64,000 nt of DNA, taken from Escherichia coli. GTDB lineage: Bacteria; Pseudomonadota; Gammaproteobacteria; Enterobacterales; Enterobacteriaceae. The stretch lies in the NCBI RefSeq assembly GCF_001677475.2, contig NZ_CP015229.1; one strand, written 5' to 3'. Every line of letters begins with the position of its first letter. Position 1 is the first letter of the stretch. A program made the position numbers. Shown one piece after another: positions 54,801-56,855 of the stretch.

Positions 54801-56855
54801 GGCCTCTGTAAGAGTTGTATTTCTTCCTTCTGATACAGCAGGTTAAATCTAACGCCTTCATTAACCTCTGAACCTTTTTATGGTTCAGTAAGCTTCCTTC
54901 CCGGCGGATAGCCAGCGTGATTCGCCTGTATCCATACCGTCCTTTATGTTTATGGAACAGCGTTAAAATCTGCCGCTTATCATCGGCATATTTGTCTGGT
55001 TTTTTACCGCTCGCCAGTTGCCAGTAGAACGTACTTCTCGCCAGCCCTGCCGCTTTTAACAAGCGCGCAAGAGGGAAGTCCGGCCTTAACTCATTCACGA
55101 TCTGCGTTTTATCCCGCGTTTTGACGTGCTTTTTTCCCTGAGCAAGGCCTGCAACTTTTTTAGATAAGCCACTTCAACACGCAGTTGTTCAAGTTCCTCT
55201 CGTTCATCATGGTTAAGAGGAGCCTGTAAAGAAGGTGCCGGGTTATTTTCAGGGCGTTCTGGCATCGTTTTTCTCCCGCGTCGGCTGTCAGTGAGGGCTT
55301 CTAATCCCCCTTCATCATACAGGCGTTCCCACAGAAGGACCGTGGAGAAAGCCGGAATAGTGAATTTTGCACAGACTTCGCGAACAGACAACCGGTGCTC
55401 ACGCATATGCAGGATAACGGACTCTTTAAAGACGGGAGAATAGGCGAAATGCCGGGTGGTAAGTCCGGCTTCGCCATGAAGCTTCCAGGCAGCAGTCCAC
55501 TTACGAACGGCACTGTGATCGATACCAAAACGCTTTGCAGTCGCTTTCTGCCCTTCCATGCCGGAAAGATAGTGCTGCACAACCTCAAGCTTAAAGCTGA
55601 GAGAATATTTACTCATAAAAAACTGCACCTTACTTCGTTGAGTGTCCAACTTTTGGGGTGCAGTTCAAATTTGGCGGTTTTTTATTGCTGGTCTGGTTCG
55701 CGGCCTTTCCAGCAGGTTGACTTGTGTTGCCGGAGCAACGCAGGCACCCCACAGTGCTTGCTATCGCGGCAATATCGCCAGTGGTGCTGTCGTGATGCGG
55801 TCTTCGCATGGACCGCACAATGAAGATACGGTGCTTTTGTATCGTACTTATTGTTTCTGGTGCGCTGTTAACCGAGGTAAATAATAACCGGAGTCTCTCC
55901 GGCAACAATTTATTGGTGGTTAACAACCTTCAGAACAGCAGGTAAGCCCGAATGCCGCCCTTTGGGGCGGCATATTTTAGATTATCCGGTTCTGTTTAAA
56001 GTCACGCAAAAAACCACCCCAGCGACGTTCATAGAATGGCACAATATGTTCGGTAATAAAGTGGCTAATTCCTTTTTCCCCTTTTTTCACCTGACAAATA
56101 TCGATTGGTTCATCGCCAGGTAATGTATCGGTCGCTACACTTCCCGCCGCCTGAATAATTTCTTCGATATCACCATCGGCTTCAATGCCAATAAGTAAAT
56201 TAGGCTGTGCCTCTTCGCTCTCTTTAATTAAACAAATAAAAGCACGCTTCACCGGCTTAATAGTTTTAAATAAGGTGGTGAGTGAATCAATCATTTGTGC
56301 TGGTGGCTCTGCGACTTCCGATAATATCAGCGATTCACCGCCCTCCAGTACTTCCTGGCTGCTCAGCGGATTTCCTTCTTCACCAATCAACAAACTGATT
56401 TCACGCGGCATAAATTCTTTACCGGTTGGCAGTTTGGCATTAAGGAAGAGCGTTTCGCCAAGGGTCATCTCAAACAATGTGCGAACGGGCATTACGACAA
56501 ATGCCTGTTCGTCTTCAACCGCCTGTTGAAGTGCTTCTAACGAGGTAAAAAAAGGAATGACGCTGGTGCCGTCTTCTTTTTCCCAGTGCTGTAAATCAAG
56601 CGCGCTATCTTCAACCACAGCCTCGCCCTGCGCCGCCGTACCCGGCACCCAGACGGTGGATTCCAGTAGAGTACGGAAAAAGGCCGGGCGGTGCGCCGGT
56701 TCGGTTGCTGCTTTTTCCAGCAGGTCTTCAAGTTCGTTTTTTGTTTCGGACATAAGAACCACAATTCATTCAACGTTCGGGGCACAAGTGCCTGATGCGC
56801 CACGCTTATCAGGCCTACAAGGGAGTCGCAATCTATTGGATTTTCGCAATTTGTA

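Follow-up and report, generated by a model that had tools for sequence, protein, structure and literature searches.

We describe an allele of the timPR (ryfA/ryfB) locus found in a 64,000-nucleotide stretch of the Escherichia coli contig NZ_CP015229.1 (assembly GCF_001677475.2), hereafter called the window. The locus lies between sseA and sseB and contains a small open reading frame (ORF). By homology, this gene is the known enterobacterial membrane-toxin gene timP, formerly the small RNA (sRNA) gene ryfA. The region is very probably a decayed form of the timPR type I toxin-antitoxin (TA) locus, and we hold with high confidence that it is a silent relic in which a 162-bp deletion has caused the loss of both the toxin and the antitoxin promoters. 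The original prediction had proposed a live toxin candidate. With both promoters and timP +1 to +64 gone, the allele is a decayed variant of a known system, and its toxin gene is probably dead rather than live.

A timP gene between sseA and sseB

The ORF runs on the + strand from an ATG at 55808 to a TAA at 55945 (45 codons), with a second methionine codon at 55820. These coordinates and the 45-residue translation given in the original prediction were reproduced exactly. The length by itself is at chance level, 64 ORFs of at least 20 residues being found in 5 kb. The homology to ryfA/timP, as measured with two family models, is not due to chance, because the DNA matches the Rfam covariance model RF00126 (ryfA) with E=1e-72 and the peptide matches the NCBIfam profile NF040796 (toxic_TimP) with E=5e-24. 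The RF00126 match (263.7 bits, for a gathering threshold of 80 bits) covers 55693-55978 on the + strand and is the single ryfA match returned by the Rfam scan of the 64-kb window. The NF040796 match (84.2 bits, above the curated whole-protein cut-off of 45 bits) aligns TimP residues 1-39 with profile positions 1-39 of 40.

The NF040796 profile begins at residue 5 of the 45-residue ORF, which is the second methionine. The four additional N-terminal codons (MDRT) sit within the stem-loop SL4 that keeps the Shine-Dalgarno (SD) sequence sequestered. Because the profile starts at residue 5 and RefSeq annotates the 41-residue form, these codons are, from the alignments, not part of TimP. The 41-residue reading from the second methionine, also mentioned in the original prediction, agrees with both. 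The timP coding sequence (CDS) is thus placed at 55820..55945 on the + strand (41 codons plus TAA, MKIRCFCIVLIVSGALLTEVNNNRSLSGNNLLVVNNLQNSR), according to the NF040796 match and to the RefSeq timP CDS at the homologous position. By sequence alignment, the ATG at 55820 equals mRNA position +145, the same position as the Salmonella timP start codon validated by mutation (PMC7667032).

The gene order sseA-timP-sseB is observed at the window locus, with timP convergent to sseB. The intrinsic terminator of timP is located at 55952..55978 on the + strand. It was found by a terminator scan and corresponds to the terminal hairpin of RF00126. Its GC-rich hairpin (55952-55973) begins 6 nt past the stop codon, has a 9-bp stem (ATGCCGCCC/GGGCGGCAT) closed by a TTTG loop and is followed by a T-run (ATTTTAGATT), in line with the GC hairpin and T-run of the original prediction. 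The terminator abuts the sseB stop codon at 55977.

DNA homologous to the timP region was found in 5,425 of 5,426 complete E. coli genomes, and in the assembly index, 4,720 blocks list a protein identical to the window TimP. The placement of ryfA in the sseA-sseB gap is borne out, on the strand proposed, by RF00126, by synteny and by the RefSeq timP annotation. The suggestion that the ORF is TimP, a membrane toxin with a divergent antitoxin sRNA, TimR, was correct as well, and the Rfam scan and the E. coli homology search proposed there both returned ryfA/timP. The description of the ORF as unannotated does not hold: RefSeq already calls timP in the listed E. coli records, as a CDS of 41 codons whose ATG corresponds to window position 55820. 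As a gene, timP/ryfA is nothing new, being characterised, modelled in Rfam and NCBIfam and annotated in RefSeq.

A 162-bp deletion between two 17-nt direct repeats

The E. coli matches to 55670-55990 were all divided in two and extended over 480-800 bp of the subject genomes. The window was aligned with the loci of E. coli LH50-c (L002), the closest intact comparison, and of K-12 (L001), and a block upstream of timP was found to be missing. LH50-c carries the 17-mer GCAGGCACCCCACAGTG twice in direct orientation, at 1571 and at 1733, with a distance of 162 bp between the two. Only one copy is kept in the window, at 55740..55756 on the + strand, where it forms the deletion junction; no other copy was found across the 64 kb, even with 3 mismatches allowed. 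When the LH50-c locus was deleted in silico between the repeats, the product departed from the window at only 3 of 320 nt, and these three substitutions all fall in the 3' part of the CDS. From this comparison, exactly 162 bp have been lost between the two repeats. Recombination from repeat to repeat or replication slippage probably removed them. The k-mer defined across the deletion junction is GGAGCAACGCAGGCACCCCACAGTGCTTGC.

In an intact locus, divergent transcription from an intergenic region of about 80 bp yields TimR on one side and the timP mRNA on the other, and TimR pairs through its first 17-18 nt with the stem-loop SL2 of the mRNA. The downstream copy of the repeat is the 5' arm and loop of SL2, that is, positions +65 to +81 of the timP 5' untranslated region (UTR), where TimR binds. 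The upstream copy, on the opposite strand, is the TimR 5' end, which carries the seed. On the DNA, the TimR seed and its target are direct repeats flanking both promoters. Intact loci have the antitoxin seed and the mRNA target as two separate segments; the window does not.

The RF00126 alignments reflect this difference, with 305 nt and 307-326 bits for intact copies and 286 nt and about 263 bits for deleted ones. The window copy does not encode the full-length RNA with SL1 (model positions about 1-64), and the SL1 motif is absent from window-type loci. Rfam nevertheless aligns 55693-55739 (47 nt) to SL1, which suggested that TimR could be an ancient antisense paralogue of the timP 5'UTR. This idea was rejected. 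A local alignment of the antisense-TimR body with timP +1 to +64 gave a score of 13, for a shuffle mean of 14.9. Because the score is below the shuffle mean, the 5' part of the RF00126 match is a forced alignment, and 55693-55739 is, as judged from the sequence, antisense-TimR DNA and not a true timP 5'UTR.

What remains of the antitoxin is a promoterless TimR (RyfB1-type) remnant at 55668..55756 on the - strand, its body complete from the seed, which is the complement of 55740-55756, to the proximal half of the terminator stem. The reverse complement of this segment, starting CACTGTGGGGTGCCTGCGTTGCTC...CACAAGTCAACCTGCTGGAA, agrees with the cloning primer and probe used for RyfB1 of Shigella dysenteriae (Fris 2017, PMC5333039). 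The timR promoter (TTGACA-17-GAGTAT, - strand) is conserved in LH50-c and K-12 and absent from the window. In both intact loci, its -10 hexamer ends 6 nt short of the repeat, which therefore places the TimR +1 at the repeat edge; this agrees with the RyfB1 cloning primer CACTGTGGGGTGCCTG. The window thus has no divergent antitoxin gene with its own promoter and terminator, the former being deleted and the latter split by an insertion sequence (IS).

The timP promoter must fall in the ~80 bp that separate the TimR and timP transcription starts, a stretch that is deleted in full. The toxin promoter and the native +1 are missing, since everything from the TimR +1 through timP +64 is gone. A scan made at the consensus level only found no sigma70-like site in 55400-56100 on either strand, and a laxer scan found nothing above 8/12 on the + strand. 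We infer that neither TimR nor the timP mRNA is made from a dedicated promoter. The original prediction had accounted for the lack of a promoter by a sequestered ribosome-binding site (RBS). The RBS is indeed sequestered, with SL4 intact, but the loss of the promoter is due to the 162-bp deletion.

The gap lies exactly between identical 17-nt repeats, a place where assembly collapses can occur, and the true genome might in principle be intact. We regard such an artefact as extremely improbable. The junction is carried by at least 12 other public loci, namely ten single-copy relatives (L015-L017, L019-L025) and two loci with tandem timP arrays (L013 and L014). These 12 independent loci come from NCBI, ENA and Logan assemblies, and the junction is therefore not an assembly artefact. 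In addition, a 17-nt repeat is shorter than assembler k-mers and reads. In L013 and L014, the junction lies in the first copy of the array and shares its contig with the intact timR-timP modules found downstream.

These two arrays comprise 3 tandem timP modules in GCA_000268145.1 (L013, 2860-4560) and 2 in GCA_000211935.2 (L014, 2860-3860), all between sseA and sseB. A ~75-nt fragment of the sseB 3' end is found in every additional module, along with a timR of its own. In L013, yfhM and sseB are fragmented, which looks like Shigella-type pseudogenisation, and both assemblies are probably Shigella. The spacer between the tandem modules of L014 (3203-3413) matches RF00125 ('IS128 RNA') with 218.7 bits. 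A matching spacer is also found upstream of the proximal timR in K-12 and is absent from the window.

The junction was not found in the 5,426 complete E. coli genomes, where the best hits of a 121-nt query were all split in two and spanned 283 nt, and the junction 30-mer had no match in the GTDB species-representative genomes. The neighbouring 8.2 kb (46000-54227, yfhM-pbpC-sseA) reaches at most 98.0% identity among the 5,426 complete RefSeq E. coli genomes and is 100% identical to the draft assembly GCA_019138595.1. On this comparison, the window belongs to a somewhat divergent E. coli-group lineage that is unrepresented among complete genomes. One further locus (L018, CP089930.1) encodes an SseB protein identical to that of the window, yet shows only 92% identity across yfhM. 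Separately, the query coverage was below 80% in 61 of 5,425 genomes. In at least one complete E. coli genome, NZ_CP044293.1 (1049810-1050455), only 52% of a 321-nt query was matched and no timP is annotated there, which suggests decay of another kind at this locus.

The K-12 ryfA and LH50-c loci occupy the same sseA-sseB position and show about 97-99% identity to the window from +65 to the terminator. The window TimP differs from that of K-12 at 3 residues and from that of LH50-c at 1. Both intact loci retain the two promoters and SL1, whereas the window does not. Upstream, K-12 also carries another TimR-like copy and a truncated module. Two TimR-like bodies are thus seen in K-12 (L001, 1500-2050). 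The seed adjacent to timP, gcaagcgcgtctcagcgg, matches the K-12 timP site gcaggtgtttcacagcgc poorly. The distal TimR-like copy, gcaggtgcttcacagca, has one mismatch to the timP site and is followed by a truncated SL1 remnant. Recombination between tandem copies seems to have shuffled the K-12 modules.

With timP-TimR of Salmonella Typhimurium (PMC7667032, PMC11228461, PMC13000454), the window shares the RF00126 and NF040796 matches, the +145 start, SL2, SL3, SL4, the terminator and the TimR body with its 17-nt seed. It differs in lacking the divergent promoter region and timP +1 to +64 (SL1, site 1 and site 2), and in having the seed and target collapsed into one DNA copy. In addition, the window TimP has 41 residues, not 38, and no STM2534-like gene is found between sseA and timP.

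Insertion of ISEcB1 in the sseA/timR terminator

An IS of the IS3 family, ISEcB1, is located at 54227..55667 on the - strand (about 1441 bp, boundaries accurate to within 1 nt). It ends 141 nt before the first ATG of the ORF, in agreement with the ~140 bp of the original prediction. The element has TG...CA ends (TGAACTG...CAGTTCA), a two-ORF transposase (orfA and orfB, from 55616 down to 54259) and an AATT target duplication, defined by the overlap of two alignment blocks against GCA_019138595.1 (L015/L025). It is 99.9% identical over 1440-1442 nt to copies annotated 'IS3-like element ISEcB1 family transposase'.

In the segment 54210..54226, recognised from the empty site in L025, the bidirectional sseA/timR terminator hairpin is represented by its left half (AAAAAACCGCC) and by loop bases; the left AATT copy (54223-54226) lies there too. 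In the empty site, the hairpin is intact (gcaataaaaaaccgccgaatttggcggttttttattgc), and the window breaks it at 54226/54227. ISEcB1 is therefore inserted in the loop of a hairpin that serves as terminator for sseA and, on the opposite strand, for timR.

The window flanks (50000-54228 and 55668-60000) are 100% identical to GCA_019138595.1, which carries the deletion and has no IS at this site. The deletion preceded the IS, because an IS-free relative with identical flanks already has it. ISEcB1 inserted later, in a sub-lineage, and split the terminator shared by sseA and timR. Contigs of GCA_018682865.1 (L021, L026) break inside ISEcB1 at the same site.

The original prediction had considered that the promoter or the antitoxin might be disrupted by the IS. 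They are disrupted, but the IS is ruled out as the cause of the promoter loss by the empty-site relative. In its full form, this earlier version holds that timP is an intact, live type I toxin gene with a sequestered RBS, whose antitoxin or promoter was displaced by the IS. The distance of 141 nt, the interruption of the terminator used by TimR and the sequestration of the SD in SL4 all fit with it. It is nonetheless very unlikely, since both promoters and timP +1 to +64 are missing even from the IS-free relative, the insertion point is a terminator loop and not the promoter region, and nothing but the sseA 3' flank and the left terminator half is found beyond the IS (54195-54226).

Other IS were seen in the same gap in other E. 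coli. In locus L009 (1720-2450), an IS200/IS605-type element (Y1_Tnp) lies just past the sseA terminator. In L010 (1700-2810), an element with a 348-residue rve transposase lies inside the divergent timR/timP promoter region. The sseA-timP gap of E. coli has thus been hit repeatedly by IS.

Elsewhere in the window, the iscRS stability element (63234-63343, - strand, 118.8 bits) and the sRNA sroE (41450-41541, - strand, 116.6 bits) match at the Rfam gathering level; these are ordinary features of this chromosomal region. The sseB-pepB spacer (56856-56900, + strand) matches naRNA4 with 40.3 bits, below the threshold of 59.5, and its GGCCGGATAAGGCGTTTACGCCGCATCCGGCA hairpin looks like a repetitive extragenic palindromic (REP)-like element. 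A sub-threshold Rfam match to sR49 at 54205-54264 was treated as chance.

Expected expression of the deletion allele and its significance

The 5'-truncated timP (ryfA) transcription unit, at 55740..55978 on the + strand, corresponds to the mRNA from +65 through its 3' end, and its helices are aligned to RF00126 at high posterior probability. Helix numbering follows PMC11228461 and was mapped onto the window by sequence alignment. On the + strand, SL2, with the TimR-binding site, is at 55740-55761 (RF00126 alignment and minimum free energy, MFE, fold). SL3 is at 55763-55796 and has the pseudoknot site 3, GCCAGTG, in its loop (55777-55783). SL4 (55797-55816, GCGGUC-UUCGCAU-GGACCGC) sequesters the weak SD GGA at 55810-55812. 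The SL2-SL4 helices of the window MFE fold are the same as those of the intact LH50-c RNA, and SL4 is present in the MFE fold, the centroid fold and the covariance alignment. By alignment, the deleted part of timP (+1 to +64) comprises SL1 with pseudoknot site 1 (CGCUGGC), the AUG of the upstream ORF (uORF) at +53, and site 2 (CCG, +57 to +59).

In the published Salmonella work, SL4 is unusually stable and holds the timP SD locked, and sequestration of the RBS has been described (PMC11228461). Translation of the Salmonella timP requires SL1, the SL1-SL3 pseudoknot and pairing between sites 2 and 4 (PMC11228461, PMC13000454). The timP mRNAs truncated at their 5' side to +48, +87 or +130 are unstable and are not translated in vitro or in vivo (PMC11228461, PMC13000454). 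The truncation of the window allele, at +65, falls between the +48 and +87 laboratory constructs. The window has kept one partner of each long-range pairing: sites 3 and 4 remain, and sites 1 and 2 are deleted.

Substitute partners for sites 3 and 4 were searched for in the new leader and rejected, the duplex energies being no better than those of shuffled sequence. For site 3, the window leader gives -13.5 kcal/mol (shuffle mean -12.9, intact RNA -15.3). For site 4, it gives -6.7 kcal/mol (shuffle mean -8.9, intact RNA -11.2). With the intact RNA, the same calculation recovered the duplexes that were expected.

The remnant is a promoterless TimR body fused to timP from +65, with SL2, SL3, SL4, the ORF and the terminator intact. 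In any read-through RNA, the SD would be expected to stay locked in SL4, because the partners that open it (site 1 for site 3, site 2 for site 4) are gone. TimP would then not be made, and the locus would be a silent relic that still has an undecayed ORF.

Conceivably, the remnant continues to be expressed and to function, be it as the TimP toxin or as the RyfA riboregulator of uropathogenic (UPEC) and avian pathogenic (APEC) E. coli. Its RNA would then read through from sseA across the IS or start at a promoter that escaped recognition. We consider this unlikely. Conservation of the ORF, of SL2-SL4 and of the terminator is perfect across the deletion carriers, and the sseA terminator of the window is split; read-through, however, cannot explain a conservation that extends over the lineage, since the IS-free relatives keep the sseA terminator. 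In its favour, the timP promoter of intact loci is not consensus-like either; against it, no promoter-like site was found in the scans described above. RyfA phenotypes that do not depend on the peptide have been reported in E. coli, but 64 nt of the RyfA RNA are missing here, SL1 included. As for TimP itself, 5'-truncated timP mRNAs are unstable and untranslated, and sites 1 and 2 are absent from the window without a substitute.

Several points weigh against the view that the locus is a silent relic. The transcriptional and translational silence of the allele is inferred, by analogy with Salmonella experiments, and the translation rules used here derive from the Salmonella mRNA, not from that of E. 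coli. Toxicity of TimP in E. coli itself is not established (PMC13188913), and E. coli studies give RyfA regulatory roles that are independent of the peptide. Toxicity or membrane damage upon overexpression and rescue by TimR were described for the Salmonella TimP only. Consensus scans are a weak test of promoter absence, as they miss the native timP promoter of intact loci too. Within the IS, only weak terminator-like hairpins are found on the + strand, and the sseA terminator is destroyed; a read-through RNA across timP is thus possible in the IS-bearing strain. Finally, TimP is identical and the ORF intact in all 12 deletion loci, with one synonymous single-nucleotide polymorphism, which fits a recent loss but also a continued constraint.

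The allele can be compared with the S. dysenteriae RyfA1/RyfB1 pair (PMC5333039). The window copy is RyfA1-like in the 5-nt variable region, which reads CACCC in the window, CCCCC in S. dysenteriae and TGTTT in RyfA2. S. dysenteriae ryfA1 keeps SL1, as seen in the published RyfA1-prom oligonucleotide, and both RNAs are expressed, whereas the window lacks both promoters. The green fluorescent protein (GFP) fusion made with S. dysenteriae RyfA1 used the uORF ATG at +53 and not the TimP start (PMC5333039). The idea that the published non-toxic, untranslated RyfA1 of S. dysenteriae is this deleted allele was rejected, the SL1 of the RyfA1-prom oligonucleotide being intact.

This deletion bears on how timP is annotated and studied. 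Pipelines based on hidden Markov models still call timP on this allele, as observed with the 41-residue genes in L017 and L019-L022. Since timP is called despite the lost promoter and 5'UTR elements, 'TimP present' overstates function. The allele is also a natural counterpart of the laboratory 5' truncations that define the timP structural switch. A carrier strain and its isogenic IS-free relative could show whether E. coli needs SL1 and site 2, and a carrier strain could show whether the UPEC/APEC RyfA phenotypes need the full RNA.

Other type I pairs (zorO-orzO, shoB-ohsC, tisB-istR1 and dinQ-agrB) have a divergent, adjacent antitoxin and a short pairing with the toxin 5'UTR (PMC7667032). 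This is a likeness of layout, and no sequence homology is claimed; these toxins need mRNA processing, whereas the timP switch is purely structural. One may tentatively speculate, though we lean against it, that the direct repeat formed by seed and target gives divergent type I TA loci in general an inbuilt and recurrent means of silencing toxin and antitoxin at one stroke, by a precise deletion. That the window lineage shares an identical junction with the first array copies of two unrelated assemblies (L013 and L014) hints at independent events, without proof. If true, the module could be lost without poisoning the cell, and this could extend to zorO-orzO, shoB-ohsC and similar pairs. If the deletion recurs, it would be one way by which chromosomal type I TA loci are lost safely.

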